Origin: Catajapyx aquilonaris
Taxonomy: Eukaryota
NCBI GenBank assembly: GCA_000934665.2
Contig: JYFJ02003880.1
Span: 1 to 36,730 of the forward strand
Length of the DNA stretch: 36,730 nt
Reading direction: 5' to 3'
Positions 3,492-32,617 of the stretch are shown in pieces. Numbering within the stretch: position 1 is the first letter of the stretch; every line of letters begins with the position of its first letter. A program made the translations under genes and the position numbers. The notes beneath the pieces are model-generated. The model was given only the letters and a program-made list of their open reading frames with translations, did not search any database and was not told the origin of the DNA.

Positions 3492-5151
3492 ATGACTACT
3501 TCAGTGATTTCCGTAGAAGAAGTGAGACAACCGAAAGGTCAGAGTTCGTTTTGGGAAGTGTTGAGACCAGTGGCCATCTTGTCAGTGGTCGGAGGAATCG
3601 CTCCTTTTCCGTGGCCCAAGAAAGAGGAAGACTTGATGAGAGGAAAGAGGTACAGACGATGGCCGACAATGGTTAATTTTGCGCTACTTGTCACGTACAT
3701 CACCGTATTTTCGTGTAAATCACCAGTGGAATGGACTGCTGAGGGACAATGGGAAAGCCCAACGCAAAGAATCGCGTTTGCATTAGCGGAATCGGTTTTG
3801 ATAGTTGGTTCATGGATTAACTACATTTTGATCCAGAAACGAGTACCTGCCATTTGGAAGTTGATTCATCGCTTTTCACATCAGAACGTGAATAGTCATC
3901 AGAAGACACTGGAAAAGTACGCAATCCTGATGGTGATCGGTTGCTTTTTTCTTCCCCTATTAATTGAGGTGGACATTATTCACAGCATCGTTCAGAAGTC
4001 GAGATCATTTGATTTTACGGAGATAATTTACACGATATTCGTTTTGCATTGTGTTTTCTTGCTGGCAGTGATCCCAATTCAGCTAATATTTTTGGTGCAC
4101 GTTCACCTGTCGCGCCTTCAGGATTTCAACAATGAAGTGATGAAAATGTGCCATTTGCTCTACAAGTCTACTGAAGAGGAACAAAATGATGTGGACATGA
4201 TCCGGAACATGAGAGATGCCTTCGATCTATATCACGAACTGGGTCTCCTGGTGGACATGATGGACGACACTTACGGGATATTTATCATGACGACCTTTCT
4301 CATTTCTGTCACGTGGAGCACAAGCTACCTCTTTTATTTGCTTACGGTTTTCACAGGACCGCCCATTATGACTGTTTTGGTGCTGGTTGCCGTCATTGCA
4401 TTGGCATCTTGCCTGGTTGCATTCTCCAGTATCCTAGGATCCATTCAAAAGCAGGTAGAGAGTGTTACTGACATTAATAATGTCACACATGAAGGTATTG
4501 TTCTGTCATTACTCATTATTTAATTGGCTGTCTATACGCATCATACCTGATCCATATAGGCAAAACATTACCTTCACAGAAGGGCTAAAATTATTGACAA
4601 ATATAATGCTGTAGTAGCCTACTGTTGAAATGGCTTATGGTCAACTTGATGGCACTTACTCTTTTTTGTAAATGCAAAAATATCATTTTCAGAGCACCAG
4701 GTCGCTTCCCCATCTGATAAAAGCCAATTGTGAAGTTACCAATCCACGCATCAAGTCTTACGTAAGTCTGTTATTTTCTATCCTTCAGAGGTTTTACATC
4801 ATGCAGCAGTTTGACAAAAATAAGGCGTGATATCTTTCCATAATAATCTATAGGTGATCATTTTGTTTCAGATTGAATCACTAATCTGGAAGATGATAGG
4901 TCCTCCCATGGAGATAACTGCAGCGAGTTACTTCACGGTCAATCGTGGCCTCCTGACCTCCGTGAGTGTGAAACTATTTGTAACTATACACGTAATGTGA
5001 CTATGTGAACTTTACTATTGCATACTATTTGAAGGTGGCGGGTGCTGTGACGACGTACCTGATAGTCCTGGCTCAGTTCAAAGCAGCAGAAAAGGTGGAA
5101 GATGTCTCGACAACAATGGCGAACACAACAGACGCACAGATACCTCCGTGA
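3492..5151 (+). CDS. Gustatory receptor GR-1 (long-tail subfamily A)
   Basis: Exons 3492-4454, 4693-4761, 4872-4961, 5035-5151. Three phase-0 C-terminal introns typical of arthropod GRs; hydrophobic multi-TM exon 1; ITAASYFTVNRGLLTS and the TM7 signature TTYLIVLAQF (TYhhhhhQF). Confidence 0.93.
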
Positions 5152-5217: not shown

Positions 5218-5665
5218 ATGTGATCTCCGCTAGAATAACATGGTCATTTAGATGGAACTTAAATGTAGTGTATTCCTTATCTTCTCTCACAGGAATCACA
5301 CTTGACATTCCTCCAAGCATAAAATAATATTCCCGAGTTGAAATATGTCACTGTTTACACTGATTGTTATACAACAGTTCAGGTTTAAAATCACTGATTC
5401 ACTTACATCATTATTCCAAGGCGACTGCAGTAGTGCTTCTTCAATACCACTGTCCACAGCCAGTCCAACACAATAATAATAATTGATATAAGTAATGAGT
5501 TTCGAAATATATTCCTCCGAGGGCAGGTGCGTGTGAGACACACAGACTATAAAAATGTAAAATGTCACGTCATAGAGACTTGTGGCTCTGTCACGCATCG
5601 TTGTATACGCGACCAAAAAATGACAAGTACAGTTATAATCATACTTTGAAGCAATAAGTAGTGAA
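5218..5665 (+). repeat. About 440-bp direct repeat, copy 1
   Basis: Near-identical to 7312-7748, from ATGTGATCTCCGCTAGAATAAC to GAAGCAATAAGTAGTGAA, with only scattered substitutions and short indels. Confidence 0.95.
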
Positions 5666-5802
5666 TTATCCCATGTGATGGTGGGCACAGTGGACATGAC
5701 ATAATGAAACTTTACAATATAACGATACAGGACTACTGCGCTATACTTACGTACTTTATTGATGCCTTCTGATTAACTTGATATAGGCCAAGTAGTTTCC
5801 TA

Positions 5803-7246
5803 TCATGTTTCCGACTCCTTGAATTGTGCTAGGACTATGAAATATGTGGTCACAGCTCCCAGCACCTACAGGCGGATATGATAATTATAATCGCATAAAA
5901 AGAGACATTATTCTAGATTTATTAAAGCACTGACTTACGCAGGTCAAGAGGCCACGATTGACCGTGAAGATATCTGCAGCTCTTATTTCTACGGCAGGAC
6001 CAGACATTATCTGGATTAGTTCTTCGATCTGCAAAAATACATTACATTAAACAAATTGACCTTGAAAATTATACTCATAAGACACATTCTCTACATTTCC
6101 TTTGGTGACCGGCTCGGTGACTAGACGATTGAGGCGAATGAGATAAGGCAGTGATCTTGTGCTCTGGAAGTAAACAAATCCAGTTTAATGCACTGCATTG
6201 CTTACGTAACTGGAATGCATACATACATTTTTGTTAGTGCTTCTGTTTGTTCATAATCGCACGTCATTTGAGCTTACCTGCCACGAGATGGACCCCATGA
6301 GAGACGTGAAATAAATCACAGAGGGCACTAATGTGACAAGGAGGACAGCAGTGCTCAACATCATAGCACCGCTGCTTGGAAAGAATGATGCGTAAAATAG
6401 AAAACTTGTGCACCATATTACAAACACCAGGTAAATGATCAGGATGGGCACACCAAATATGATGTTAATGTTGTCCACCAAAAAGAAAATGTCATAATAT
6501 GTCTTTGTTGAATTTGCTATTTTTGTAGATACATCCTTGCAGTTTTTATCCTCGCCAGTGGGTTTGTCGAAGATAGTGTATAGCTGGACAATATCATTGT
6601 TGAAGTCCTTTTGTATCAGCTGGATCACTTTGGCTAAAAACATAATTTGAACAGTAATGGAACATAGCAAATATAGAGCGTGACAATTCACGAATATGTG
6701 ATAGAGAGAATCACGTGAAGATAGAGTACCTTCGAAGTGATAGAGTGAGGCATACGCTATTTGCGTCAAAAAGACTATCATAACTGAACCAACAACCACC
6801 AGGACGGAGAACTTTCGCAACGGCCTCTTGTGACATGTCACATCCAGATGAAAGCATCGGTGGATTAGCTGCCATATTTTGGCTAATTTGGTTTGAATCA
6901 AGATGTAGTCGATCAATGGATAAACCACTAGGGCTACACGCACTGTTGCAGCTGCTACAATCGCTGTCGTGGAATATTTTTTGACACGGTCCCACATTTC
7001 AGGCAAAAACCAGGTTGCATTTATGATGTGTGCGGCGAAAAGAAGGAAGTGCACCATTGTTGGCCACCGTTGGTACCACTTCCATTGCTGACTTTGTCTT
7101 GGGTAAGGACAAGGGGCGATTCCTGCCACCACTGACATGGTGGCAAGGGGTCTGAACGCTATCCAAAATGATCCATCTTCCGCTTCTGTTTCGTTCGTTA
7201 TTCTCTCTTCACTTATCGTAATCACAGTAGACACTCTTCTAAACAT
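5803..7246 (-). CDS. Gustatory receptor GR-2 (short-tail subfamily B)
   Basis: Exons 7246-6278, 6163-6095, 6028-5939, 5865-5803, all phase 0; ends IRAADIFTVNRGLLTC-VLGAVTTYFIVLAQFKESET*. Confidence 0.93.
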
Positions 7247-7311
7247 GATTGTCACTCAATCGAACAACTTGTCACCACCTCACACTTGCCATTCTCCTCG
7301 TAAATTCTCAA

Positions 7312-7748
7312 ATGTGATCTCCGCTAGAATAACATGGTCATTTAGATGGAACTTAAATGTAGTGTATTCCTTATCTTCACTCACAGTAATCACACTTGAC
7401 ATGCCTCCAAACATAAATATTCCCCAGTTGAAATATGTCACTGTTTACACTGATTGTTATCCAACAGCTCAGGTTTAAAATCACTGATTCACTTACATCA
7501 CTCCAAGGCGACTGCAGTAGTGCTTCTTCAATACCACTGTCCACAGCCAGTCCAACACAATAATAATAATTGATGTAAGTAATGAGTTTCGAAATATATT
7601 CCTCCGAGGGCAGGTGCGTGTTAGACACACAGACTATAAAAATGTAAAATGTCACGTCATAGGGACTTGTGGCTCTGTCACGCATCGTTGTATACGCGAA
7701 AAATGACAAGTACAGTTATAATCATACCTTGAAGCAATAAGTAGTGAA
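7312..7748 (+). repeat. About 440-bp direct repeat, copy 2 (fills most of the divergent GR-2/GR-3 promoter region)
   Basis: Near-identical to 5218-5665. Confidence 0.95.
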
Positions 7749-7800
7749 ATATTTCTCTGAAAGGGAGCAAATACAGCAAAAACGAGCCGCCACTTTCAAA

Positions 7801-9508
7801 ATGTTTGGGCGAATGTCTACAGTGATTCCGGTGAAGGAGACTAAAAAAACAAAAGACACTGCAAAAAATGGAAGTGCATTTTGGGAAGTGTTGAGACCAG
7901 TGGCCATCTTGTCAGTGGTCGGAGGAATCGCTCCTTTTCCGTGGCCCAAGAAAGAGGAGGATCTTAGAGGGAAGTGGTACAGACGGTGGCCAACAATGAT
8001 TCATTTTGCACTATTCGCAGCATATATCGCCATATTTGTGAGTAATCCTCCAATAGAATGGGTGGGACAATGGGAAAGTCCAACACAAAGAGTCTCGTTT
8101 TCAATAACTGAGTCTGTTTTGAATGTTGGTCCATGGATCAACTTCATTTTGATCCAGAGACGAGTGCCTGCCATCTGGAAGTTGATTCATCGCTTTTCAC
8201 AGCTGAACGTGAAAAGTCATCAGAAGACACTGCGAATTTCTGCAATCCTACTGGTGATCTCTTGTGTGTCCCTCCCCCCATTACTTGAAGCTGACATGAT
8301 TGTTGAGCTCGCTCAGGAGCCAGGATCACTTACAAAAATAATTCACAATCTTTTCATAATGCATTGCATCTACTTGCTGGTCGTGATTCCCATTCAGCTG
8401 ACATTTCTGGTGCTCGTTCACCTGTCGCGCCTCCAGGACTTCAACAATGAAGTAATCAGTATGTGCGATGTACTCTGCACGTCAAGTGAAGAGGTCCAGA
8501 ATGATGTCAACATGATCCGGAACGTGAGACAATCAGCTGATCTGTATCACGAACTGGGTCTCCTGGTGGACATGATGGACGACACATACGGGATATTCAT
8601 CATGACTACCTTTCTCATTTCTGTCACGTGGATCACAAGCTTCCTTTTTTATTTGCTTATGATTTTCACGGGACCGCCCATTTCAACTAGATTGGGACTG
8701 GTTGCCGTCATTTCATGGGCATCTTCCCTGGTTGCATTCTCCAGCATCCTGGGATCCATTCAAAAGCAGGTAGAGATTGTTACTGACAATAATAAAGTCA
8801 CAGCAAAAGGCATTGCCACCTCATTGTTTAATTGGCTGGCACGCAATACAACTTCAGCCATAGCCATTCCGTATGCTCACAAAATGGCTGCAAAATGGCT
8901 AAAATTGACTGACAAAATGCAATGTTGTTGTCCAGTTTAAAGTGCTTATTGTCAACCTGATTACACTCTTATAGTAAACGTTACTAATGTAAATAATTGT
9001 TGTAAAATATTGGTTTTCCAGAGCAACAGATCACTTCCCCACCTGATAAAAGCGAATCGTGAAGTGACCAATCCACGCATCAAATCAGATGTAAGTGTGT
9101 TTATTAATATAATGCCCTGCACATATTTCACACTTTATCCACCTTGCATGCAGCACCATCACAAAAATAATCATGCCTGACATTAATTTTCCATAAAATA
9201 TAGGTTATTATATTTGTTTCAGATTGAATCACTAATCTGGAAGATGATAGGTCCTCCCATGGAGATAACTGCGGCCAATTACTTCACGGTCAATCGCGGC
9301 CTGTTGACCTCCGTGAGTTATTCTGTGAAACTAGTTGTAACTACACATGATGTAACTCTATGTGAACATCACTGTTTGTCATTTGAAGGTGGCCGGTGCT
9401 GTGACGACGTACCTGATAGTCCTGGCTCAGTTCAAAGCAGCAGAAAAGGTGGAGGATGGTGTCACGGCAACAGTGGAGAACACAACAGACACACAGATAC
9501 CCCCGTGA
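7801..9508 (+). CDS. Gustatory receptor GR-3 (subfamily A)
   Basis: Exons 7801-8769, 9022-9090, 9223-9312, 9389-9508; ends VAGAVTTYLIVLAQFKAAEKVEDGVTATVENTTDTQIPP*. Confidence 0.93.
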
Positions 9509-10168: not shown

Positions 10169-13100
10169 ATGTGGAGTCACATGTGTCCTGCACTGACAAC
10201 TACGAACATGGCAATCATTCTGTGTGTCGTTGCTGTGGTGTCTGAAACCAGCCCCGAAAATGAGAAGGAAAAACCACCAGTACTGACATGCAACCTTAAG
10301 GTCGGAAAGAAGCCTTCTCGAAGAGATTGGGTGTATGGACCAATGCCTAGCCAGAAGAAGAAGTTTGTCCAGTGGTTAGTGACCGGATGCTTGGAGGGTT
10401 GCCCGTCAACCTTGCGTGAAGTTAAAAAGTACGCTCCGTATGACGGATGGAGCAATAATGTTATGTACCCTTCGAACGGAAGACTTGGTGAGTAGCTGTC
10501 TTCTGAAGAAACAACATTTTGTCCATTTCATGTGCATTGCAGGAGAGCAGCTTTTCTCCAACGAGATTGCCAACGGTTATGACGACGGTGCAAGAACGCC
10601 TTCCGGACAGAACAGGCCCAACCCATTGACCATAAGCCAGACTCTGTTCAATGGTGACCATATCGTCGATCGGGAATCAGCCCGGAACGTCCTTCAAGTC
10701 TTCTTCGGGCAGTTCGTGGCAGACGAGATAATCAACAACCGTGCCATGCACTGTCCCCTTGAGGGAATGAAGATTGAGGTTCCAGAGGGGCACCATTACA
10801 GGTCCAAGTATAATCAGGAGTCCATCCCGTTCTATCGGGCAGCCCACGATCCGGACACTGGAGACACCTACATGATTCCTCGTCAGCAGGTCAACCAAGT
10901 GACGTCCTGGATAGACGGCAGTGCAATATACGGAAACACCAAGCTTTGGGCCGGTGTCCTCAGGACTCAGAATTACATGAAGATGGACCCGGATGGTCTT
11001 CTGGCAGGAAACCTTCGGGGAGACTATCCGGAGTACAACTACATGCGACTGCCCATCGAGAACAAGCCTCCTCCAGTCAACGCCTCGTTCTTCGAGAAGA
11101 AGAAGACGTACTTCTCCTTGGGAAGGTTGTACCAGTTCGGGGATGTCCAAGCCCATGAACAGCCGGCACTGATGAGCATAGCCATAGTCTGGTTCAGGTG
11201 GCACAACGCCCTGGCCATGTACCTGCGAAAGGCATACCCGGAGGCCAGCGGAGAGCAGATCTTCCAGGAGGCAAGGAAGTGGGTTCTGGCCACCTACCAG
11301 CACATCATCCTCTACGAGTGGCTACCACATTTCTTGGAAGACGAAACTCTTCCTTCTCCTTACACAGGTGAGGCCAAGTTTGTACACATAAAAATGGATT
11401 CTGAACCATTTTTTTCAGGATTCCGGGCTTCGGTGAGTCCAAGCATCAACAAAATATTTGCTGCTGTTTCCATGCGCATTGGGCACACCCTGCTTCCTCA
11501 CGGGTTGAACCTGAGGAATTACGGATGGCAGGGATGCAAGATGCAGCCTTTCAGCATGGGACAGACAACACAGAGCAGCAAACTGATGAGACTCTGCAAT
11601 GCCTACTGGCAAGCAGAGGTAGGTCCAAACAATGTTGCGATTTCTGTAATGCGAAGCGCCACTAAGTTCATGCTGCATTTACAGGGTCTCTTCAAGGAAC
11701 CAATTCTGGACTCCAAGTCTTCATTCCAGTACCTTACTTTGGACGACATGATCATGGGACTCATGGTGCAGCCAGCGGAGCAGCTGGACAACTTCTTGGT
11801 TGAGGATGTCAGAGGTCACCAATTCTTTCAGTATACTTTAAACCCTCTAATAACCTCCTGATTCTTGCAGAGTACCTGTACGGATCCATGGACTACATTA
11901 GAACCGATCTGGGAGCCATAGACATCCAACGAGGAAGGGACTTTGGACTGTCCAGCTACACCCAGATTTACAACGACGCTGCTCATATGTACAATTTCAC
12001 GCCGAAACAGATTACCACGAAAGAGGATTTCTACAGGGAATACGAAAAAGAGATGAAACCAAAGGAATACTCTGACTTGCAAAAGGTGGGTTTTGTATGT
12101 CCATTTTTTGGTGACATTGCTTTCCATATCCTTTCAGAAATGGGATGAACTGTTCTCGTTGTATGGCGACATACACAACATCGACATGTACGTAGGAAGC
12201 CTGATGAGATCTCAGGGAAGGTTGGACCCATTTTTGCGTCACAACATTGCAACCCAGTTTGAACGGCTACGGGATGGCGACTCGTTATGGTTTGAAAACA
12301 GGAAAGAAGCGTGAGTTGTGCTGTGCTTATATAAAAATCGGTACCTAGTTGGATTTGATCAATCTTCTAGGCTTTTCAACGACGAAGAGATATGCAGGAT
12401 CAAGCAGGTGACCTTTGCAGACATTGTCATCGCAACGACAGAACTGGGCGTATTAGACATGCACGAGGATATATTCGTCCTTCCTTGGGCAGACGGTAAG
12501 TTGCAGACTTTCATTAACAACAGCCAATTTTAATGCCCACCATCCTTTCAAGATGACCCGCCGACCTTTCCCCTGCACGACAACTGCAAGAAGACTTTAA
12601 AACAGCGCTTTGATTGCAAGGTCAGAGGTCAGACCAAGATGGCCTGCTGGAGCGTCGGATGGCCGGACAAGCAGGACCTTGAGAAATGCACCGAATTCAT
12701 GGAGTACAAGTTCGGGCAGGACGTGCACGTGGACATCATTCTCACTGTGCTGTGCTACATTCTAATCATGATTTGTGAGTGATCAACATTACCCTCATTT
12801 TCTCCTATTATAAAAATAATTGTCTTTTTCGCAGGTGATTTGTGCATATTGCAATATGTGGTCCTGATCCGTCGTGGAAAGTGGAGCCAGAGGGCACCGC
12901 ATCTGAAAGGCCGACTACAGTTCCACGTGAAGAGAGGTCGTCACATGAAGGTGTACATCGCCATGGAGTACATTGGATGGAAGATGGGTTCCCGTTCGGT
13001 CCTGCTGTACATGAACTACAGGAGGAAAGGTCTGGAGATATGGGCCACCGAGGGAGGGATGCTGCGGTTCGTAAGTCTGGACACCTACCAGAGCATGCGC

Positions 13101-16100
13101 ATCCTGCTGGGACAGGAAGGACAGTACGCGTCCATACTCATACCAATGCACTACGACGTGGTCCTGCAATTCGTCACTGCCAAACACAGGGACGGGTTCA
13201 TCACGGCTTTCGTTCACTTCCTGGACACGCTTAAGATCCGGTCTCGGATACAGAACCTGCGTCTGTCCGAGGTCATGGTGAAGACCACCAACTTGCAGCA
13301 GAGGCAGGAGCAAATCAAGTTCTTCTGCATGACGGCCTACTCCTTGTTGCAAAGGGTCAGCTCTAGAATACACAGGGTGTTCCGCAATGCACTCACAACA
13401 TGAGTTAATTTTTTTTTTTGTAGGCGTATGACATCCCAGTGATGGACGTGAGAGACCTGAAGAAAATGAAAAGGAAGGCCCACCTCGTGAAGAACATACA
13501 ACTCACCAGGGCCGAATTGGCAGAACTATTTGGTATCAAGGAGCGAAGTATCTTTATGTACAAGGTTGGTTGCTTGGCCCTCCTGCATTTTAGTGTAATC
13601 ATAGTATGTGGTACTGTGGGATAAAAGTGGCAGTACTATCCGAAATATTGTTTTGTCCACAGATATTCTACTTGTTTGACAGGAAGAATCAAAAGTCAGT
13701 GTCCCTTCAAGACTTTCTGGACGTGTTTGTTATTCTAAGCGTTGGTGAGCTATGCTACGAATATTTCTGCTTATATGGAGTGGTTCTCATGGGGCAGTTG
13801 ATTCATGGTTTTTTCAGGATCTGCTGAGAAAAAGGCTTCAATCATGTTCAGCCTGCATGACACTGAGGAGTTAAATTATTTGAACAAGACGCAGTTCGTA
13901 GAAATGATCAAGTGAGTCCAACTTATGCGACCTTCTGTCCAGCCCATCCTTTATCGGTATACGTCATATCTTTGCAGGACTCTGGCTGAAGCTGCCAACA
14001 CAAATGTCGACGCCAACGAAATGCCGCGATTGGTCGAGAAACTCCTGGAGACCAGTGGCCTGCGTGACAAGGTGAGCTACAAAAATCTTGTCAAATTCTG
14101 TCGTTCAAATGCTTACTCCGCCCCAGGATAAGTTGTACTTGGAGGACCTCCTGAAGGTTCTGGGAGGCAACAAGGACTTCTTGGGATACGCCTACCTGAA
14201 CATCGGTGAGCACAACATACCGGACTATATGCTGACTAAAGGTTTCCACACTGAATCGAAGAGACTCAGCGAAAATTACTTCATTACCACCCTGGCCAGG
14301 GCTGGCACCCTTTTCGGGTAAAATGTTGTCTGAATCCAACCACATGTTGCACCAAACATGTCTCTTTGTTTCTTCAGTGAAGGTAAACGTGTGGAACGGA
14401 ACGAGCTTGAAGTGGACGAAGAGGTAACGGCGTCGTTTCCTTGGCAAAGAGACACCTGCTTTGGGAGGCTTCGAAAGTGGATTATCCAGTACGGCAATTA
14501 CCTGAACAGCAACTCAACTGTTGTCTTCTATCTGACGATCTACGTGGCGCTCGTCTTTGTGATATGCCTAAGAGGTGATTTTAATATAACAGTGCACTCA
14601 AATCTAACGAAATATTACCGATGGACTTGTCTTTCCAGAGGTATTCACTGCTCCAGCAGGTGTTTCTAGCTACCGAATCGCTCTTCGAGGAACAGGAGCC
14701 TCCCTGAGCTTCATGCTGGGCACCACATTAATCACAGTATGCCGAAACCTGATGACAGCCCTCAGGGAGACTTTCCTCAACCGGACAATTCCTATCGACC
14801 TGGCCGTGGAATTCCACAAGTTCATCAGCCTTCTTATTTTAATTTTTAGTAGTGAGTATTCCCCCCCCCCCCCAAAAAAAATGTCTGAATTGAAATTTTC
14901 AAGACGTATCAAGTCCTTGTGTCCATATTCTTGCTTTTCTTCCTTGCAGTTGCTCACATCATCTGTGGAATACTGATGGTGATTTATCAGTACGCTTTTA
15001 GCAGTGACCATGAGTTGTCGTGCCTCACAGGCACTCTCATCCCCACGTCAGTATATGAATTTACTCGCAATAATGTTATGACCACCCAACCTTCCCTTGC
15101 AGATCCGAATCCATGACGACCTACACCACTTGGATGATGGAAACCATCCCAGGTGTGTCTTCCATCGTGATGTTCTTCATCCTCAGCACCATGTACATAT
15201 TCTCGACGTCTCACAGTCGCACCCTGGTCTACCGGTACTTCTGGATGACCCACAATTTGTATCCACTCCTATACCTGACGCTAATGGTTCACGTCATCAC
15301 TCTGTTAGAACCCGTGAGTATACTGTTGACCGAAAAATGCGGGTCTAACAAACAATCGGTGTATGCTCATTGCAGCCGACTGTGTACGGACGCTTCATGG
15401 TTTTTCCGATCTTTATATACTGTGCCGACTACATGAGAAACCTGACGCAGAACAAGCGATTAGTGTACGTAGATGAGGTCGAGTTCTTGCCTTCCAGTAA
15501 GTGTGTACCTTTGATACCTAGGCCATGTAGATTAATTATACCTGCCATTGCACTTAATTTTCAGATACAATCAGGGTTCGGTTGGATAGGCCACCAGGGT
15601 TCAGCTTCAGGTCAGGCCAGTTCATTAAGGTCTCGTCGATGGCCATGAACCCAAACGACCTTCACGCGTTTTACGTGGCCTCCCCACCGGAGGAGCCGTA
15701 CCTGGACCTGTACATCAACATCGTCGGACCTTGGACCTTCAACTTACGGACCATTTACGGATTGGTACACAGCAGGGGAATGGTACACTATCCGCGAATG
15801 AGGATCGAAGGTCCTTTCGGTACGTCCCTTCAGAACTGGACCAACTACGAGGTGGTCATCCTGGTGGCCAACGAGATGGGGATCATACCATTTCTATCAA
15901 TCATCAAGGATATGATACACTGCAGCACGAACAAGGTCCCCATGCATTGCGAAAAGGTAAGGTCCTAAAGAAGTCTGGTATATGCAATGGTGGTTGCCGC
16001 GTGTGCTGGTTAACCTGCAGATTTACCTTCTGTGGACAACCGAGTCGCAACGGTCTTACGAGTGGGTCATTGACATCCTGAGAGAAGTGGAGGAAGCTGA

Positions 16101-16596
16101 CATGTACGGGTTCATGTCCATTCACATATTTATCACCCAGACTAGCAATAAGTTTTCCTGGAGGACCATCATGGTGGTAAGTTGTCTCTTGATTACACGG
16201 GTTTCTAGCACTACCTTTCTGTCTTTTTCCGTGCCAGTACCTGTGTGAACGACACTTCCAGAGGAGTAAAGACAGGTCGCTTTTCACAGGCCTTCTAGCC
16301 ACCACACACTTTCGACCACCTTCTTACAGGAAGTTTTTTTTGAAGCTCAAAGTAGCCTACTTGCATGTAAGTTGGCTCATACACTCCACAATTTTTAAAT
16401 TTCAGAACGGCTACATTTTTTTCTTGTTTATTATTGAGACTGCAACTAGTGCACAAATTATGTCTTCCCATCACCAAAACAGGTCAATGTGTTTGGTGTT
16501 TTTTACGCTGGTGAAAAGATGCAAGGGATGCGGATACGGAGGATCTGCGAAGAGATCACTCAGCTTCAAGGAGCCTCGTATAGTTTTAATATGTGA
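10169..16596 (+). CDS. Duox: Divergent dual oxidase (Duox)-like protein, more than 20 exons
   Basis: Signal peptide; peroxidase-homology domain (YDGWSNN, VFFGQFVADE, PRQQVNQVTSWIDGSAIYG, WFRWHN, YQHIILYEWLP, RIGHT, DIQRGRDFG); TM; EF-hand region (13663-14071); ferric-reductase TMs (FHK...AH, FWMTH...VH); GQFI, GPWT, EGPFG, YLCERHF, SLFTGL. Last exon 16483-16596. The junctions checked splice in frame with GT-AG. The start could be 10169 or 10208. Confidence 0.92.
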
Positions 16597-16698: not shown

Positions 16699-16704
16699 AA
16701 TAAA
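16699..16704 (+). terminator. Candidate polyadenylation signal of the Duox-like gene
   Basis: AATAAA about 100 bp after the stop codon, followed by GT-rich sequence. Confidence 0.45.
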
Positions 16705-16982: not shown

Positions 16983-17699
16983 CTATAAACTATCGTTCTT
17001 CCAACTAGTGTTTGTTTTGGGCAGCCAGGCTATGACCACGAAGTTCTTCCGGAATTCTGCAATGAAACGATATCAGTTAGAACAGTCATGGAACTTCCTG
17101 AGTCTCATGTACTGTACGTAGTCTCACCCTTGTGGTTGATGTTCCCATGCTCATCTTTGGGAGCAAGCCTGAGGAGCTCGTCAACCTCATTCTGTGGCAT
17201 GTTCTCTCCATTGTTGAACAGAAGCGTATTCATCTGATCGGCTGTGACGTACCCTGTGTCTTCAGGGTCTAACTCTTTGAAGGCCTTCGTTGCGACTGAT
17301 TCCTTCAAGTTGGGAAGACTCATTGCCTTCTTAATGATTTCCAAGAACTTAGGCCAGTTAATCTGATCACTTCCTGAAGTATTATTGCATTTTGTATATC
17401 TATTTGTCAGTCGGTTATTATGAGATACGCACCTTTGAGATCAAATTGGGCCAGAAGTTCTGCGAAGTCTTCAGGGGTGGTCTCAAGTCCCTGGAACATT
17501 GCGAAGGCGTCGTGTGCGTCTTCTGCTATGGTGTGTCCCTTCTCTTCACGGTCCAGGAAGGAGAAGATGTCCATCAAAAACGACAAATCCTCTTGCGCGA
17601 AAAATGTCACAGTCTGTAAGATTTCGAAGTGAAGATCAAGAATATTCACCTTTCAGAGTCAAGCAGAGGATGTCAGACCTTCTTAGGTGGAACGGCCAT
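16983..17699 (-). CDS. Calmodulin-like / myosin-light-chain-like EF-hand protein, paralog 2
   Basis: Four exons splice to MAVPPKK-TVTFFAQEDLSFLMDIFSFLDREEKGHTIAED...FDLK-GSDQINWPKFLEII...KAFKELDPEDTGYVTADQMNTLLFNNGENMPQNEVDELLRLAPKDEHGNINHK-EFRKNF...SL*; four calmodulin-type hands. Confidence 0.9.
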
Positions 17700-17761
17700 G
17701 ATGAGGGTCTGTCTTTTTAAAGGTTTAGTCTCACATGGAATACTTAGCTGTGTAAACAATC

Positions 17762-18149: not shown

Positions 18150-19532
18150 TCAATTTTCCGAAGCCTTGAATTGTGTCAGGACTATGAAATATGTTGTCAC
18201 AGCTCCCAGCACCTGTAAGCGGAGATGAAATATTCACGGGCGTTATTTTTGATAGAAGAATGCAATAACTTACGGAGGTCAAGAGGCCACGATTGACCGT
18301 GAAGATATTGGCCGCTCTTATTTCGACGGGAGGGCCAGACATCATCTGGATCAATTCTTCGATCTGAAAGGATAGATGTGTATAACTCATTTGGCATTAT
18401 AATTATTGAGACTACAATACATTTGCTTTGATGTCAGTATCGGTGACTAGACGACTGAGGCGAATTAGATGAGGCAGTGATCGTGTGCTCTGGAAGTCAA
18501 GATGGAATTTAATACACTGAAACGCTTACGTGACTGAACTGATATTCTTGGACAACACTTGAGATTTACCTGCCATGAAATGGACCCCAATAGCCACGTG
18601 AAGTAACTTAGTGAGACTACTAGGATGAAAATCAGGACAATGTTGCTCATCAAAGTAGTACTGTTCAGTGAATACATAACTACGTAAAATAGGAAACTGG
18701 TAGACCATATCACAAACACCAGGTAAATGATGAGGATGGGCACACCGAATGTGATGTTAATTTCGTCCACCAAGAAGAAAATTTCATAAAATGTTTTTGT
18801 TGATTGGGCAATTTTAATAGACATATCCTTGCGGTTTTTCTCATCTCCCGCTTGTTTGTCTAAGATAGTGCAGAGCTGGACAATATCATTGTTGAAGTCC
18901 TTTTGTTTCAGCTGAATCACTCTAACCAAAAACATAATTTGAATAGTAATAGAACAGATCAGAAAAACGGAATGGAAATGCATGAAAATGTGATACAGAG
19001 ATGTGTGTGAAGAAATAGTACCATCGAAGTAATAGAAGGTAATATAAGACGACTGCGTCAAAAGGACTATAATTACTAAATCAACCACCAATAGCACAGA
19101 ATACTTTCTCAGCGACCTTTCGTGACCCACCACATCCAGACGACAGAAACGGTGGATTAGCTCCCAAATTTTGGGCAATTTGGTTTGAACAAAAATGTAG
19201 CTGATCCAGGGACCGCCCAGAACAGCTACTCGCACAACCATGGTTGTTACCATCACAGTCGGAGAATATTTACTGATAATGTCCCACATTTCAGGCAAAA
19301 ACCAGACGGCATTTATGATGTGTGCGACGAAAAGAATGAAGTGCACCATTGTTGGCCACCGTTGGTACCACTTCCATCGCGCACTTTGTCTTGGGTAAGG
19401 ACAAGGTGAGATCCCTGCCACCACAGCCATGACGGCCAGTGGTCTGAACACTGTCCAAAAAGTGTCATCTTGCTGTCCCTTTTTTCTTTCCTTTAGCGGA
19501 ATAACAACTGACACTCTCTCAAAAATGACCAT
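18150..19532 (-). CDS. Gustatory receptor GR-4 (subfamily B)
   Basis: Exons 19532-18570, 18489-18421, 18363-18274, 18212-18150; ends VLGAVTTYFIVLTQFKASEN*. Confidence 0.93.
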
Positions 19533-20428
19533 CACTAACACCTTGGCGCGTGTATGTTACACACTTAAAGGCAGCTCTTTCACTGGGTGGGACAACACAT
19601 ATCAGTTGCATTGGTATACGAACATGTTACGTAAGTAATGTATGAGACATCAAAATGTGTCGTGGTTCCAGATTAATTGTTTCACAACATTATGTCCACT
19701 TACTTTAGTCGATTTTGTTCATTAGAATGGTTCTTGGTGACCTTATGTGCACCGTGTGTTCACTTGTAGAATATAATTTGATTTCCACCGCATATTGACA
19801 GATAAAAAGGGCCAAAATCATTAGGTACGGTACTTAAATTGTCATTGTTCCGAAGTTTTGAATTGTGCGAATACAATGAAATAAGTGGTCACAGCTCCCA
19901 GCACCTACAAACAGAAGGTGAAAAATTCAGTTGATAACAAATATCATTTGAGATATTATTGGATTAACATACTGAGGTCAAGAGGCCACGATTGACCGTG
20001 AAGATATTGGCCGCTCTTATTTCGACGGGTGGACCAGACATCATCTGGATTAGTTCTTCAATCTGTAACAAAGAGTACATAGTGTGACATGAACACTTGA
20101 ACAGTACGATGTCTTGTCTACATTTTCTTTGGTGTCAGGCTGTGTGACTAGACGACTGAGGCGAATTAGATGCGGAAGTGATCTTGTGCTCTGGAGGTAA
20201 TTAAAAGGAATTTAATGCACTCGCTTACGTAACAGATATTCTTGCATAATTATCATTAGAGCTTACCTGCCAAGAAATGGAACCCATGAGGGAGGTGAAG
20301 TAAATCACTGGGGGCACTAAGGTGACAATGCGGATAATGCTGATGAACATACTAACACCGCCGTGTGAAAAGAAAAATAAATAAAAAAGATAATTGGTGC
20401 ACCACATCACAAACAATAAGTAGAAGAT

Positions 20429-20752
20429 TTTTTTTTAATTACCTTACGGGGGGAGTTACGTACTCCTTAGGGGGGGTGGGTTACCACCTTTGGAAATTTG
20501 TGTTGGAGCGGGTTTAAGAATAATCTTAATTAGTATGCTCCAAGGGTGGGTGGGAGGGGATGTGCAAAGTGCAAGTGCAATGTCTCTAATCGTCATTTTG
20601 TGAACTCCCCCGGGTGGCTTAGTCTGTCGGAAATTGCCACCCGAAACGAAGCCAGAGATGGCCCAACTCTGCACGAAAGAAGGTGGGAACCCCGGGTGGG
20701 GATTGAACCCGGGACCTTTACTTCCGTGGGCGCCGCGCCACTCCGTCTCCCC
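20429..20752 (-). mobile_element. tRNA-derived SINE inserted in GR-5 exon 1
   Basis: Perfect 16-bp TSD ACAATAAGTAGAAGAT (20413-20428, 20753-20768); head with B-box GGTTCAATCC; A-rich 3' tail. Confidence 0.9.
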
Positions 20753-21736
20753 ACAATAAGTAGAAGATCAGGATGGACACACCGAATATGCTGTTAATGC
20801 TGTCCACCAATAATAATATTTCATAAAATGTGTTTGTTGAATTAGCCATTAGAGTCGATGTATACTTTCGGCCTCTATAATCTTTCTCGTGATTGGCGAA
20901 AATAGTGTAGTGGCTAATGACATCATTGTTAAAGTCTTTTTGTAGTATCTGGATCACTTTAGCCAAAAACATAATTTGAATAAAAATGGAAAATAGCGAA
21001 AATAAGGAGTGGCTATTTAAGAATATGAAGCATAATGATCCGGTTGCAGTCAAGGTTCCTCGAAAGTAATAGACGATCAGATTTGATAGCTGGCTTAAAA
21101 AGACCATAACTACTAATGCAACAACCAAACACAGCGAGTACTTTCTCATCGACCTTTTGCAACCCGTCACATCCAGATTAGAAAATCTGTGGATTAGCTC
21201 CCAAAATTCGGTCACTTTAGTTTGAATCCAAATGTAGTTGATCAAGGGGCCAATCACAATGGTTACACGCACGATTGTGGTTGTTACCACAATGGTTAGA
21301 GAAGATTTTCTGATAGTGCGCCACATCGTAGGGACGATAGTCCCTATAAGTAAGATCGTCAGGTAGTTTTCCAACAATTAATTTTTTTGCCTTGTTGGGA
21401 CAAATTTGTGCCGAGCTCTACAGGCCTTATCCTTGCACACAAAGACTTCAAGTTTTGAACATACCTCCGTACTGCACCAACTTATCCCCCTAACCTCTAT
21501 GCAAATTAGCCTATTTCATCTCACAGCCAATTAAAAAATTATATAAAAAAATATATAAAAAATCAATTAAATTAAATTAATTTTATTTTCTAATTGCCAC
21601 GCAACTCATATCAACAAATGCCTCGCGCAACTGATTGCTATAGAGACCGAAGCATAAAAATTAACCTCCACAGACATTACGAATTGAGTTAGCGAATTGG
21701 AACGTGTGACTTCTTCCTATCATGTGACATCTCATG

Positions 21737-22859: not shown

Positions 22860-24010
22860 AACGAAGCATGCGTCAGCAACTACAGCAGGTGCAAGGCAGA
22901 AGGATTGAATCCCGTGTGCCTCCTCCCAACCAACGACATGTGCCACGAGTTCAACCACCGTATGCATCGTGCGTCGTGCCTGGATACTGTCCTTCTGGAG
23001 GCAGAGGACAAGCTCACAGCAGGCAACAAGGCTGGAGGATGGAGAATAACCGCCGCATCTCGTCAGTCAAGATCAACTTTGACAACATCCCAAACGACGA
23101 AAAGTCGATCTGTCGGACCTAGGCAGGTACGGGTCCGAATATTAGTTGGATAGGGGTATGTGGCATAGCTGTATGCGAAATCACACAAGGCTGGTGGTTA
23201 AATTCATACTTCAATTTAATGTACTCCGACTAACATACTAGTACCTCCAAACATTACAACAACTTTGAACAATATGCAACTTCCTCCTTATGGAGGCACC
23301 CCTTCCAAAATCACGTACTGTGCGATTGAAAATTCTTACCTGTTGGAATGCTCAAGCTCTGTCTGCCGGGCTGTCAAGATGTGAAGTCTCTTTTTAAATA
23401 ATTCCGGCGCTGCTTTTATAGTGCCCGGTTTGAGGTGGGGCTCGGTGTTTTCACAACTGTATTAATCTGATTCCTTTTGCATCCCGTAATGTGTGTGTCA
23501 TATTGATGCTGTAAGTTTCCTATCCCTTCCACCGCGCTTGGACTCTAATGGCTCTTTTTGTATGGATTACTGGCGCCAAGGAGTCTACTACTTTATAGAT
23601 TACTATGGCACTGCAGTGACAGTGACAATCATGTAATTTTAAATGAGTTTACGGGGCATAATTATAGCCAATTAATTACTGCGCACTTGGTTATGATAAT
23701 CATATTAGTTGTTATGCCGTATGCGGCATGACAATCTGCAGGTGTGTTGTCAAGTTCGAGCTCGGCTACAACATATACGCGGAGAGGAAACAGTTTCCAC
23801 TGATACTAGCATACGCCATCACCATCCACAAAATCTCAGGGGCTCACTCTGGATTCCGCTTTGGTGGACCTCAGCAAGTCCGTGTTCGCAAGAGGAATGG
23901 CGTACGTCGCGCTCTCGAGAGTCCAGGCGCTGGACAGACTATACATCCTTCGCCTAGATGAACGCTGCATCAAGGCCGACGTGGGCTGTGTGAGGGAATA
24001 CAATAGACTC
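22860..24010 (+). pseudogene. Pif1-family helicase C-terminal remnant
   Basis: PVCLLPTNDMCHEFN (motif IV-like), then after a ~600-bp interruption RKQFPLILAYAITIHK/SQGLTLD (motif V, +1 frameshift near 23832) and VFARGMAYVALSRV (motif VI). Confidence 0.88.
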
Positions 24011-24089
24011 CATTGCTCTCCTCCATTGCTCTTACCCAGGAAAACAACGAAGCGGCCACATGCAGTCTCCTCCGCATCAGAAATATCAC

Positions 24090-24960
24090 TTAGGTCTTAG
24101 GGGGTTCGACAATCCAAGTCCAAATGTTTCTTGCTATGCCAACGCTGCCTTGGTATGTCTCTTCGCGCAGCCAGACCTCAGGACAAGAATCTCGGCCTCG
24201 AAGGGAAGCAGCAGCGTTTTAAGGGCCCTAAAAACAGCTCTCGCACAACACCGACCTTATCAGCGTCCCCCTGCGAAGAGGAGAGTATCCAACACAACGG
24301 CACCGGCAACTATAATGACGTCGTCGCTCCCTCGTCATTCGGGGTCAGAAGAGCTCTGGGTAGAGGATTCGACGCGGAGAAACAGCAAGACTCTTTAGAG
24401 TTCATCGAATTCCTGTTCGAAGATTTGCCTGTACCTACACCTAAGAGACTGGGGCACTCACCGATGCCACGATGAATATGAGTGTTCCTTCTGCCACGCC
24501 AGATGGGAAGGGGCAGAGGAAACTCGGCGGTATCTCTCTCTGATCGTGCCAAGAGAGAGTGTGTCTCTCTTCGTCCTGTTGCAGCAGAGGGACGAAGGAG
24601 TACCATGCCCGTCTTGTAAGCGCACTGGGGTTGCTGCCAAGACCTGCATTTGAAGTAACGTACAAGGTTGCCTCATCCTGCACCTTGAACGTCACGATGA
24701 AAGTGGAGGGGAAAGGTCGGACGCCAGCATAACAGATTTCGACCTAAGTGACCATATATCAATTGGATTCAAGCTATTCAAAAGCAGTGAAATCCTATTA
24801 CACCATGGAGTCTCAATGAATTACAACCACTACACTGCTTTAGTGAAGAGTGAAGGGTGAAGGTAGTTGGCTACACTTTAACGACCAGCAGATGACCACT
24901 ACTTCGGATCCGAGGAGAATGATTAGGGACACAGTCTGCATATTTCTCCTACCTCTATCT
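24090..24960 (+). pseudogene. USP/C19 ubiquitin-specific protease remnant
   Basis: Cys box GLRGFDNPSPNVSCYANAALVCL; QQDSLEFIEFLFE; CPSC finger; LILHLERH; His box LLHHGVSMNYNHYTALVK; WLHFND. The boxes are in the right order but spread over several frames with stops. Confidence 0.8.
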
Positions 24961-25158
24961 CTGAAGGCTGATACAACCCATCCTTCTTAGTTTCCAAATA
25001 AAATATGTGATACGTAAGCAAATTATTTATTCCCATTTTCAAAACATTATAAAATTTTTTAAATCATACACAACGAATGCAATTTGCATCTCTTCTAAAC
25101 ACGAATACATCAATGAGTATAACTACTTGTTCATATTGCTTCGTCAAAAAATAACTGC

Positions 25159-25816
25159 AATTATCACAAAAAAACAATCCCTATGGAATTGTAAAAAAAA
25201 GAAAGTAAGATCTAAGTGACGGATAGAAATTACTGAAACAAGACTGGGCTGCGTAAGATCTTCACCATATGGGTAAATGTAACCCAGAGATCTTACTTCC
25301 GCATTTAACGTTTTACAAGATGTCATGTTAGAAATTGTCTAAAAGATCCAGAGTATAATAAGCCATTCTGTTAACCAATTAACATCCTAGCCCCCCAACT
25401 AATCGATTAACCAATAAATCAATCAACCAACCAGCACCTCATTTAATCAATGGAACAACAAAGAAAAAATCAAGCCTCCGAACAACCAATCTCCAACCAA
25501 CCAGACAATAAGTAATCACTTACTGTTAGCAAGTCATAAGTATTTAACCAATCATCATTCAAAAAACCAGCCTATAAACCCTTGGGAATACTATTCTCAG
25601 CCCTACAATCACTAATACCTAACACCCAGCACAAAGATGACTTGATCAACACCATCTTGTAAAACGTTAAATGCGGAAGTAAGATCTCTGGGTTACATTT
25701 ACCCATATGGTGAAGATCTTACGCAGCCCAGTCTTGTTTCAGTAATTTCTATCCGTCACTTAGATCTTACTTTCTTTTTTTTACAATTCCATAGGGATTG
25801 TTTTTTTGTGATAATT
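25159..25816. repeat. Foldback: 164-bp inverted arms with a ~330-bp spacer
   Basis: 25159-25322 is the reverse complement of 25653-25816 and looks essentially perfect by eye. Confidence 0.95.
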
Positions 25817-26506
25817 TCAAGTAAAACCCATGCTGCATTTATGATGTGTGCGACGAAAAGAAGGAAGTGCACCATTGTTGGCCACCGTTGGTACCACTTC
25901 CATTGTTGACATTGTCTTGGGTAAGGACAAGGGGAGATTCCTGCCACCACTGCCATGATGGCCAGGGGTCTGAACGACGTCTTCTGTTTCATTGGTTGTT
26001 CTTTCTTCATTTATCGTAATCACAGTAGACACTCTTCTAAACATGATTTTCACTCATTCAAACACAAGTTTTGTCACTAGTTCTCAGTGAAAATTTCCTA
26101 ATGTCTCTTTTCTGGGACCCATAACGCAGTGACTCCCTTTCACACTAACTGCACCAGCAAAATGTCTCTCCAACAGAGCGCATCTATAAAAAACATCAAT
26201 TACTGACCTTTATAGTGACCCCTATAAAAGATGTATCCACAAATGAGTAATTGCTTGTTTAATATTACAAAATTCGATTTTGTTTTATGTGCCCATTCTT
26301 CTGGCCGGGTCCATTCACAAGCCTACACCTTTCAGTTTTGTAACAATAACTGATTCATTTGTCAGGGTGTAACTTGTCACATAGTGCTGTCAAATAACAT
26401 CCTAAAGAGAAATATGATTTTTATGCAGTGTTGTTACGTGACTAGATGCATGAATATTACAAAGGTTAGACCGGTGGTCGTAGTGATGTAATATTGTTGT
26501 AGTAAT

Positions 26507-27355: not shown

Positions 27356-28967
27356 TCAAGGAGTCATCCCTGCGTCGGTTGTGTTTGGCTCAGTGTAGTC
27401 GAGGCCATCATCTTTCCAATTTTCTCCTAATTTGAATTGAGCGAGGACTATCAGAAACGTCGTTACAGCAGCGGCCACCTTCAAAAAAAGTATACAGTAA
27501 TGTTTACATCATGTATGATCTGTTGTCAAATAGTTTCACAGAAGCAAAACTCACTGAGGTCAGCATGCCACGATTGACAGTGAAGTAACTGGCAGCAGTT
27601 ATCTCCATTGGAGGACCTATCATAGTCCAGATTAGTGATTGAATCTGAAACAAAATAATCACATATAAATGGAAATTCTACATACAGGATAGAGATACTG
27701 TAAACAAGTACACTTACATCTGCCTTGATGCGTGGATTGATCACTTGGCGATTTGCTCTGATCAGATGGGGAAGTGACTTGGTGCTCTGAAAAGATAAGG
27801 TTTTTTGGCATTATAAATTAGTAAAATTAACTCAGAGTGTAATCAAGTTGACCAAAACCTTTTTAAACAGTTTAAAAATATTGCATGTCGTCACCAATGT
27901 TGGCCCTTCACAGATTAATTTTGCTCTGTTACATTATGTTTCAAAGATCGAGTGTCTTTTTCTTGCATTACAATCTATACCTGCTTTTGAATGGATCCGA
28001 GGATACTGGCGAAAACAACCAGGGAAGTTGCCACTGTAATGACTGCAACGAGCCCCAAACCGGTTTCAATGGGAGATTCCGTAGAAGTAATTATTAGCAA
28101 GAAAAAGAGAAAAGTGGTGCTCCACATTACAAGCATTAGAATGGTCGTCATGATGAATATGCCGTAAGTGTCGTGCATCATGTCCACCAGGCGACAAAGC
28201 TCGTGAAACAAATCAGCGGAATATCTGATGTTCCGGATCATGTTCACATCATTTTGTGCTTCAGTGGACGTGTACAGTAAATGGCACATTTTGATCACTT
28301 CATTGTTGAAATCCTCGAGGCGCGACAGGTGAACGAGGACCAGAAATGTCAGCTGAATGGGAATCACGACCAGTAAGAAGTAGCAAAACACAAAGTACAA
28401 AGTGTCAATTAATTCTATGATATCAAACTGTTCGCCGGGAAACATAATTAAGCAGGCGATTGCGTCAGCATCATGTAATACAGGAAGGGAAACACAGGAG
28501 ATCACCAGCAGGATTGCATAGGTTCGCAACTTCTTCTTATGGCTTTTCACGTTCTGATGTGACAAGCGTATAATCAACCTCCAGATGGCAGGTACTCTCC
28601 TTTGGATCAAAACGAAGTTACACCACGGACCTAAAATCAAAACCGATTCCAATATTGTCATCGAGACTGTTTCCGTTGGACCTCCAAATCGTCCCTCAGC
28701 AGTCCAGTACTGTGGTGGGTCACTCACAAGTAGAGCAATATGTAGTACAAGCAATGCAAAATGTATGATTGTTGGCCATCGCCTGTACCACATTCCTCTC
28801 AAGTCTTCCTCTTTCTTGGGCCAAGGATAAGGAGCGATTCCTCCAACCACTGACAAGATGGCCACTGGTCTCAACACTTCCCAAAATGTACTTCCACTCT
28901 TTGCACTGTCTTTTGCATTTTGGGCCTCCTCCACCGAAATCACTATCGTCGACATTCTTCCAAACAT
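27356..28967 (-). CDS. Gustatory receptor GR-6 (subfamily A)
   Basis: Exons 28967-27981, 27786-27718, 27644-27555, 27478-27356; ends VAAAVTTFLIVLAQFKLGENWKDDGLDYTEPNTTDAGMTP*. Confidence 0.93.
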
Positions 28968-32189: not shown

Positions 32190-32550
32190 AATAAAATGGG
32201 AAAAATCATAACTTCAATCCTGTAGAAGTGTAGAACAAAAGTCCACACCATCCTGCTGCACATTCGCCCATTTGAAGAAGAAACATAATTCCACATGGTT
32301 ATTGCGCAAAAAATAAAAACCCTTTTTATTAGTGGTTTTTAATTTTTTGTGCAGTACTGAAGAGGAATTCAGTTTAGGTGTAAATGGTAGGAAATCACTT
32401 CATCGCAGTGGAGATCTGCGTTCAAAATTTGGAACCTCTACCTGCTGCAGAATCGGAGTTAGAGCGAATGGAAAAAAACGTAACACCATGTTGGAAAAAT
32501 TCATTGTTGAAATGGGATATTCGGTCTTACTTAGGGGCTACCGACCCTAA
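32190..32550 (+). mobile_element. Non-autonomous Helentron-associated element end, related to the left end of 21327-25813
   Basis: 32405-32549 is colinear with the reverse complement of 21327-21470 (GCAGT, GTTCAAAA, TAGAGC, AAAAATT.ATTGTTG.AA, TCTTACTT, terminal hairpin TAGGG...CCCTA). The left boundary is uncertain. Confidence 0.6.
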
Positions 32551-32551
32551 A

Positions 32552-32617
<66 letters not shown>
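32552..32617. repeat. (ATT)22 microsatellite, the SINE tail
   Basis: Pure ATT run directly abutting the SINE body. Confidence 0.97.

Follow-up and report, generated by a model that had tools for sequence, protein, structure and literature searches.

Positions 1 to 36,730 of contig JYFJ02003880.1 from Catajapyx aquilonaris (assembly GCA_000934665.2) were analysed on both strands, and this entire stretch of 36,730 nucleotides is referred to here as the window. Its main feature is a dual oxidase (Duox)-like gene on the plus strand (10208..16596), which in our spliced model comprises 23 exons with a 4923-nt coding sequence and, in a three-frame reading, encodes 1640 amino acids followed by one terminal stop. 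The model was derived from DNA rather than RNA, with exon borders set by hand; all 22 introns are of the GT-AG type and measure 51-116 nt each. The start codon at 10208 is tentative, and there is a further in-frame ATG upstream. Pfam searches of the individual exons place a complete Duox domain set in a single chain (the EF match being weak). The extracellular peroxidase-homology domain (PHD) spans 10543..12495 (An_peroxidase, E 7e-57, and alignments) and is followed by the exons of the first membrane helix M0 and the PH-like domain (12553..13355; hydropathy and alignment with paralogs and canonical Duox) and by EF-hand exons with degenerate loops, DRKNQKSVSLQD and DTEELNYLNKTQ (13663..13911; weak Pfam EF matches, E 0.045 and 0.0056). 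The six-helix ferric-reductase domain (14378..15496, Ferric_reduct) precedes an exon for the flavin adenine dinucleotide (FAD)-binding domain, which carries HAFYVAS, GPWT and a rewritten glycine loop, ANEMGIIP, for nicotinamide adenine dinucleotide phosphate (NADPH) (15565..15956; FAD_binding_8, alignment with human DUOX1, AlphaFold and Foldseek). The remaining NADPH-binding domain exons, which lack the terminal ENF, lie at 16021..16596 (NAD_binding_6 and alignments), and a motif scan found AATAAA at 16699..16704 (+), a likely polyadenylation signal. Architecture, tree grouping and shared introns together indicate that the gene is a Duox by descent.

A first-pass annotation of the window had proposed that the exons splice without stops, and the 1640-residue frame with its single terminal stop bears this out. 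An initial splice model placed a 172-nt intron at 14206 and was rejected because this broke the frame; an intron at 14318-14377, which occurs in two paralogs, mends the frame. Every one of the 22 intron positions is common to at least one Duox paralog of the same genome: 21 to C5623, 19 to C5764B, 11 to C3423 and 10 to the canonical C28 (C-numbers denote contigs of this genome, whose loci were modelled with a purpose-written spliced aligner). Simulated neutral mutation at about 0.2 substitutions per site introduced a mean of 27 stops, with a minimum of 10 in 1000 runs. Given the shared introns and zero stops against roughly 27 expected, the intact frame therefore exceeds chance. When all six frames of the window were scanned for the canonical CGP, ENF-stop, GxGxTP, HPFT and HFGRP motifs, none was found, and there is thus no alternative canonical terminal exon in the window; a different last exon with a canonical end, whose use in transcripts the first-pass annotation had named as grounds for refuting its reading, was rejected on this basis.

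Residues of the heme, oxygen, flavin, nucleotide and calcium sites

Residue roles were taken from passages of PMC7794343 (human DUOX1 structure), PMC3591440 (ferric reductase domain superfamily) and PMC4550764 (a review of chronic granulomatous disease) and mapped by alignment. The four bis-heme histidines are all present with the spacing previously reported (H1223, H1237, H1317 and H1330; codons at 14815, 14955, 15251 and 15290). The oxygen site is a different matter and represents, on alignment, an addition to the first-pass annotation, where its loss was missed. The oxygen-site histidine (H119 of NOX2, H1148 of DUOX1) is replaced by Gly1241 (14967), and the equivalent of NOX2 Thr178-Gly179 reads Ser-Ser (15158), while the oxygen-site Arg1180 and the equivalents of Gly412 and Pro415 are retained. 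In the passages of PMC3591440, His119 and Thr178-Gly179 constitute the NOX signature and His119 divides NOX enzymes from ferric reductases.

The FAD-phosphate Arg1306 (15218) and Lys1224 are retained. LHAFYVASPP begins at 15660 (His codon at 15663) in the region of the HPFT motif, of which the His is kept while Pro has become Ala and Thr has become Tyr; the following Ser and GPWT are kept. An AlphaFold model of this 130-residue exon, built on a 20-row alignment, has a predicted local distance difference test score of 78 and finds its best Foldseek matches in DUOX1; the model, which informs on fold and not on cofactor binding, predicts that the fold of the FAD exon is intact. The nucleotide site has been altered more extensively. 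The glycine-loop region VILVANEMGIIPF begins at 15855, and its loop ANEMGIIP replaces GxGxTP/GGGIGVTP; the motif placed at 15867-15881 by the first-pass annotation is real, although that span corresponds to the ANEMG core and not to the entire motif. THFRPP (16304) has Pro1587 (16316) in place of R1495, GVFYAGE (16495) has Ala1612 (16507) in place of C1520 (NOX2 C537), Glu1516 (16042) occupies the position of DUOX1 R1424, and YSFNM followed by the stop (16579-16596) replaces the terminal ENF. LHAFYVASPP, THFRPP, GVFYAGE and YSFNM had all been read from the DNA before, and all are present in the spliced model. According to passages of PMC4550764, the NOX2 substitutions C537R, T341K, G408E/R and E568K impair activity, and the window protein differs at all four of these positions.

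The EF loops lack the pattern at positions 3, 5 and 6 that is present in the canonical C28 and C19 proteins; EF1 is retained by some paralogs. In the PHD, the proximal His391 (11484) is kept, Gln296 (11148) replaces the distal Arg, Asp occupies the position of the distal His, and the Asn partner of the proximal His has become Asp496 (11921-11923). For this last position we assume the register given by motif alignment with C28 and C19 together with myeloperoxidase numbering; a short-exon search against solved peroxidases for the proximal Asn register returned nothing usable. Cys164 (10752) of the PHD-to-loop C disulfide is retained. The ectodomain accordingly lacks the distal His-Arg and proximal His-Asn pairs of an active heme peroxidase (roles from passages of PMC3533774). 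As for an active oxidase, the protein retains the heme histidines and is without the oxygen-site signature, the NADPH site and canonical calcium loops.

Comparison with a structurally characterized oxidase illustrates the same division. The human and mouse DUOX1-DUOXA1 structures (PDB 7d3e/7d3f and 6wxr/6wxv; passages of PMC7794343) display the same order of PHD, M0, PH-like, EF, six-helix bis-heme, FAD and NADPH domains, and DUOX1 is the best match in sequence and in fold. Shared with DUOX1 are the four heme histidines, R1087, R1214, R1131 (as Lys) and the cysteines joining PHD and loop C. Equivalents of H1148, R1424, R1495, C1520, GGGIGVTP and the terminal ENF are missing from the window protein, its EF loops are degenerate, and it keeps a PHD proximal His that is absent from DUOX1. 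Loop A is about 10 residues shorter than that of C28. Because the NADPH site, the oxygen-site His and the canonical calcium loops are lost, the protein likely produces no peroxide from NADPH, and we consider it very probable that the gene encodes a retained pseudo-oxidase rather than an NADPH:O2 oxidase.

Paralogs, selection and a separate weevil lineage

Searches of the same genome, which used the FAD and peroxidase exons as queries and give lower bounds for paralog counts, recovered two canonical Duox genes, C19 (near Penaeus Duox) and C28 (Duox2-like), so that the canonical Duox sought by the first-pass annotation does exist elsewhere in the genome. Degenerate copies were found on C5623, C5764 (a tandem pair), C2148, C3471, C3423 and C4589 (one without its 5' end); further pieces, one covering a 5' half (C4589) and the other a 3' end (C3423), represent one gene or two, giving nine or ten degenerate copies with the window gene included. 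Because the aligner scores against stops, their absence from the paralog models is in part a product of the method, and the shared introns serve as an independent check. The C5623 protein is 72% identical to the window protein. In a quick tree of 26 rows, from which partial and redundant rows were omitted, seven near-full-length degenerate proteins form a single clade with a Shimodaira-Hasegawa-like approximate likelihood ratio of 100. The clade sits inside the arthropod Duox2 group (support 86), where the branching order among it, C28 and the crustacean and mite sequences is unresolved, and its enclosing branch has support 99 in a second tree; all trees were composed of Duox rows, without a NOX5/Rboh outgroup. 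The window gene thus groups with Duox proteins in these trees, which place the genome among the arthropods and probably the Pancrustacea.

The residue pattern of the window protein extends across the clade. All four heme histidines are kept in the eight paralogs covering the region (4/4 sites, 8/8), as are R1214, R1131 (as Lys), the HPFT His, the next Ser and GPWT. Conversely, none of the eight retains an equivalent of NOX2 G408, T414, C537 or E568 or of DUOX1 R1424 or R1495, the terminal Glu-Asn-Phe is altered in 8/8, and the His119 equivalent is found in none of the eight versus 37 of 39 canonical rows. Thr178-Gly179 is kept by the other subclade and lost in that of the window gene, the oxygen-site Arg is partly lost in the other subclade, and the EF loops are variably degenerate. 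In the PHD, the proximal His is kept in 7/7 and the distal Arg lost in 7/7, and the Asn partner is Asp in 7/7 versus Asn in C28 and C19; the Cys pair of the PHD-loop C disulfide is kept in 7/7 and 8/8. Of 14 heme and FAD positions, 11 were kept in all eight paralogs, compared with 35 of the 95 other near-invariant transmembrane (TM) and dehydrogenase (DH) positions (Fisher p=0.007); of 9 NADPH-site positions, 4 were lost in all eight, compared with 12 of the 95 (p=0.03; p=0.055 for the window gene alone); these contrasts are post hoc, with sites picked from papers and paralogs that are mutually related. Results demonstrate that key NADPH-site residues and the oxygen-site His are lost clade-wide while the heme histidines and most FAD contacts are retained. 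The earlier proposal that both NADPH and FAD motifs had been rewritten consequently stands for NADPH and not for FAD, whose contacts are mostly kept across the clade, the Thr to Tyr change in the HPFT motif of the window's subclade notwithstanding.

One might suppose that these proteins are still oxidases, whether weak, calcium-independent or switched to NADH. Glu or Asp replaces the Arg that binds the 2'-phosphate in 4/8 paralogs, a change in the direction typical of a switch to NADH, and the window protein keeps the oxygen-site Arg1180 and Gly412-Pro415. We consider such activity quite improbable, as the nicotinamide-side Cys, Gly408, Thr414 and the terminal Glu-Asn-Phe, which matter for either nucleotide, are altered in all eight paralogs and His119 is present in none.

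Selection was evaluated as the ratio of nonsynonymous to synonymous substitution (dN/dS) by the Nei-Gojobori method with Jukes-Cantor correction and 500 codon bootstraps, which ignores transition and codon bias and approaches saturation in the deeper pairs. Against its nearest paralog, C5623, the window gene has a dS of 0.41 and a dN/dS of 0.43 (0.37-0.50), and hence not the value near 1 that, together with a lack of expression, the first-pass annotation had offered as evidence against it; by domain the values are 0.38 for the PHD, 0.42 for PH-like, 0.34 for EF, 0.57 for TM and 0.37 (0.27-0.52) for DH. The other pairs with all domains gave 0.45 for C5764A/B (DH 0.22), 0.28 for C3471/C2148 (DH 0.14), 0.35 for window/C5764A (DH 0.20) and 0.63 for C3423/C4589a (DH 0.38); for the three partial pairs the values were 0.43, 0.66 and 0.53, the interval of the last reaching 1.05. 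Whole-gene intervals exclude 1 in 5/5 pairs with all domains, TM lies above the whole-gene value in 5/5, and DH has the lowest dN/dS in 4/5. Purifying constraint is real, although enzymes are usually under a tighter one, and in four of the five full pairs it is strongest in the DH domain, the part whose catalytic residues have been rewritten. A dN/dS below 1 in every domain and the clade-wide loss of the NADPH site support the original suggestion of a maintained paralog that keeps its heme and is probably unable to oxidise NADPH normally. The high ratios for an enzyme, up to 0.63-0.66 in the youngest pairs, are what decaying duplicates, pseudogenes not yet broken, might display. That account appears very improbable in view of the absence of stops in 1640 codons against about 27 expected, of whole-gene intervals that exclude 1 in all five full pairs, and of motif losses that fall on deep branches common to the clade.

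A weak ortholog search gave 0 matches among 43 candidates, the ESM Atlas yielded only generic FAD_binding_8 clusters and no clade ortholog, and no ortholog of the degenerate clade was found in these limited database searches. Among the best 150 of 1526 matches from 1.84 billion representatives, the top identity was 44%, the full degenerate pattern occurred only in P0110, from a weevil, and P0082 and P0081 were partly changed. A PHD profile of five paralogs recovered 45 matches, comprising 41 Duox proteins of canonical type and 4 non-Duox peroxidases; 41/41 of the Duox matches keep His119, plus the glycine loop and catalytic Cys where the region is present. The degenerate clade groups with the arthropod Duox B or 'dual oxidase 2-like' proteins (crayfish XP_045615867.2, beetles, bees and C28), its best matches there being at most 44% identical. 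Those 41 Duox matches keep His119 and, where covered, the glycine loop and the catalytic Cys, whereas the degenerate clade is without them. The Duox A/B split is that of PMC11721785, and the letter B for the degenerate clade is our assignment from passages of that article, not from its trees. Literal word matching in the open-access literature found no description of a DH-degenerate Duox family, and the passages of PMC1940245 and PMC5372347 describe none.

When the weevil protein was used as a query, three degenerate clusters, all from the red palm weevil Rhynchophorus ferrugineus, appeared among 29 matches. These 'dual oxidase 2-like' proteins (KAF7270827.1, XP_076267168.1 and two more clusters; P0110/P0171, P0180 and P0181) resemble the Catajapyx set in being an expansion from Duox2, here of three genes, in which the glycine loop, the Cys, ENF and His119 (0/3) are gone. 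They differ in that the EF loops are kept, whereas most FAD contacts, some heme histidines and the PHD His are lost and the peroxidase domain has decayed; sites kept in all three copies amount to 2/4 for heme His and 2/10 for FAD. The weevil set nests within beetle Duox2, and a joint clade with the Catajapyx set is rejected by the approximately unbiased (AU) test (p=0.0025, 16 rows). A single origin, suggested by a FastTree analysis that joined both sets (0.65), was not recovered under a mixture model and was rejected on the AU result. The AU rejection and the nesting among beetles therefore indicate that degeneration was convergent, with different parts spared. Open-access text contains no paper that we could find on the weevil paralogs, which are annotated as ordinary oxidases. 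The Duox sequences P0082/P0175, with GEGIGVTP, an acidic residue at the R1424 position and SAG for CGP, are a possible third independent degeneration of the NADPH motifs.

DuoxA partners, neighbouring genes and possible functions

A Pfam search of the genome for DuoxA gave 18 matches at 11 loci, to which a second search added none. Seven of these loci form a divergent clade (100/99) that is placed next to the DuoxA beside C28 (89/87); of the others, one sits with C19, and those on C1280 and C726 have long branches, the latter coming from a poor gene model. On C28 (141500-147500, L051) the canonical Duox2-like gene and a DuoxA are arranged head-to-head, and on C19 a Duox and a DuoxA lie about 46 kb apart on the same strand. 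Divergent DuoxA-like genes on C2314 (L035), C3659 (L037), C4071 (L039) and C1527 (L036) encode long acidic, Ser/Thr-rich or Pro-rich C-terminal tails, and the C2314 gene contains tandem repeats within an open frame of 1242 aa. Since Duox and DuoxMF co-evolve, according to passages of PMC11721785, a parallel DuoxA expansion is expected of a functional family. We infer that degenerate Duox proteins may be paired with divergent DuoxA proteins and delivered to the cell surface.

The protein could also be a wholly non-catalytic scaffold or regulator that keeps its cofactor sites only for folding and acts by binding. It might, for instance, join canonical Duox in mixed 2:2 complexes and so damp or localise it, or use its peroxidase-like domain for adhesion at the surface or as a matrix protein. 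DUOX1 is a 2:2 tetramer held through PHD-PHD and DUOXA contacts (passages of PMC7794343), and the PHD-loop C Cys pair is kept throughout (7/7 and 8/8). Both ends of the electron chain are lost, the FAD threonines are lost in the window's subclade, and the weevil copies, which also lose heme histidines and FAD contacts, indicate that Duox-like proteins can persist without the wire. We regard this role as unlikely, if worth serious consideration: the cytosolic DH domain, needless for a PHD-based scaffold, is the most constrained in 4/5 pairs, and at least nine copies with seven dedicated-looking DuoxA genes are many for a simple inhibitor.

The Duox gene is flanked by at least seven 7tm_7 gustatory-receptor-like copies of two subfamilies. 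Pfam places them at 3498-4454 and 7801-8769 on the plus strand and at 27981-28967, 6272-7255 and 18468-19556 on the minus strand; those at 20261-21335 and 25813-26007 (minus strand) are apparently partial or broken. Divergent calmodulin or myosin-light-chain-like EF-hand genes lie on the minus strand at ~17030-17734 and 3-425, the former tail-to-tail with Duox about 430 bases past its stop. Chemoreceptor or calmodulin-like neighbours were rejected as a trait of the clade, with 0 matches at the other loci (211,093 bases). The window further contains an ABC transporter gene, ABCA-like by its appearance (~30060-34580, minus strand; ABC_tran match at 30501-30983), and plus-strand fragments at 23668-24100 whose motifs resemble a PIF1/Helitron helicase C-terminus (no Pfam match on 23810-24097). 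Two pairs of repeats are recent local copies, one direct (452 bases, 95%; 5218-5669 versus 7312-7752) and one inverted (167 bases, 99%; 25156-25322 versus 25653-25819).

The chemoreceptors bear on a further alternative, a family of heme-based surface sensors in which the outer and membrane parts vary so as to bind different ligands or gases (O2, NO, CO, peroxides or metals) and a conserved cytosolic domain signals to a common partner. Across paralogs the TM part evolves faster and DH slower, and several of the divergent DuoxA proteins end in long tails that are acidic or rich in Ser. Hemes with bis-His ligation are six-coordinate and bind gases poorly, however, and the chemoreceptor cluster is not repeated at the other loci, with 0 matches in the 211,093 bases around paralogs and DuoxA genes. 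The PHD, in which the proximal His is kept, its Asn partner is Asp and the distal Arg is lost (each 7/7), suggests a tuned non-peroxidase heme binding (roles from passages of PMC3533774). On balance we find a sensor family rather improbable.

Among active roles, the simplest is a transmembrane relay in which heme and flavin would carry electrons supplied by a non-NADPH donor, because the fuel, oxygen and calcium sites are gone, the heme wire and flavin platform are spared, and the DH domain is constrained. We put this forward, by analogy, at a little short of an even chance. Heme and flavin would be loaded into the protein, a divergent DuoxA-like partner would bring it to the cell surface, electrons would enter from reduced flavin or a partner reductase after the logic of STEAP1, and they would exit to a putative acceptor other than O2 or set a redox state. 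STEAP1 has no NADPH domain and is nonetheless reduced by FADH2 or cytochrome b5 reductase (PMC10659578). It is likewise a membrane hemoprotein of the ferric-reductase superfamily without a working NADPH module (PMC10659578 and PMC7363144), and the analogy is functional only: STEAP1 has one heme and no dehydrogenase domain, whereas in the window protein the DH fold is complete and constrained, there are two heme sites, and the ectodomain is peroxidase-like. The FRE/FRO ferric reductases also carry four heme histidines without His119, and the window's subclade shares with them the absence of Thr178-Gly179 (passages of PMC3591440); they differ in having a working NADPH site and no PHD/EF module, and the window gene descends from Duox.

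Several observations weigh against a redox-active pseudo-oxidase. The heme histidines may persist only because folding requires heme, as it does in NOX2. The FAD sites by themselves, kept at 7/10, do not differ significantly from other positions (p=0.085). The HPFT Thr is Tyr in the window's subclade (4/8 paralogs), with Pro to Ala also in the window protein, and passages of PMC4550764 state that the T341K, G408 and E568K mutants of NOX2 block FAD incorporation; flavin binding by the window protein is therefore doubtful. Among canonical rows, too, 10 of 42 have a residue other than Arg at the R1424 position, so its loss is not diagnostic. A dN/dS of 0.3-0.6 is relaxed, and the Nei-Gojobori estimates are rough. 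NOX paralogs without His119 are known, of which Dictyostelium NoxC may contribute to reactive oxygen species (ROS; unpublished data cited in passages of PMC3591440). That the protein is no normal NADPH oxidase and is yet maintained nevertheless appears highly probable, and is far firmer than any specific job assigned to it.

Newly described here are the clade-wide residue contrast, the DuoxA clade, the domain-wise dN/dS and the independent weevil case. Duox has been studied as a source of H2O2 in cuticle cross-linking, gut immunity and wound signalling. We tentatively propose, as a possibility open to considerable doubt, that an arthropod lineage turned Duox B and DuoxA into multigene surface redox relays or sensors, with at least nine heme-wired pseudo-oxidases that would combine varied outer parts, a conserved cytosolic flavin domain, a divergent DuoxA for each, a non-NADPH donor and a non-O2 target; weevils may independently have taken the same first steps, which would make this a recurring unrecognised class. 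If true, it would represent a second, non-ROS use of the Duox/DuoxA scaffold in which the heme wire is kept and both substrates are dropped. These genes provide natural variants for dissecting the folding, assembly and electron-transfer parts of Duox. Arthropod 'dual oxidase 2-like' annotations, the pest weevil included, can be pseudoenzymes, which bears on gene counts and on the interpretation of RNA interference.

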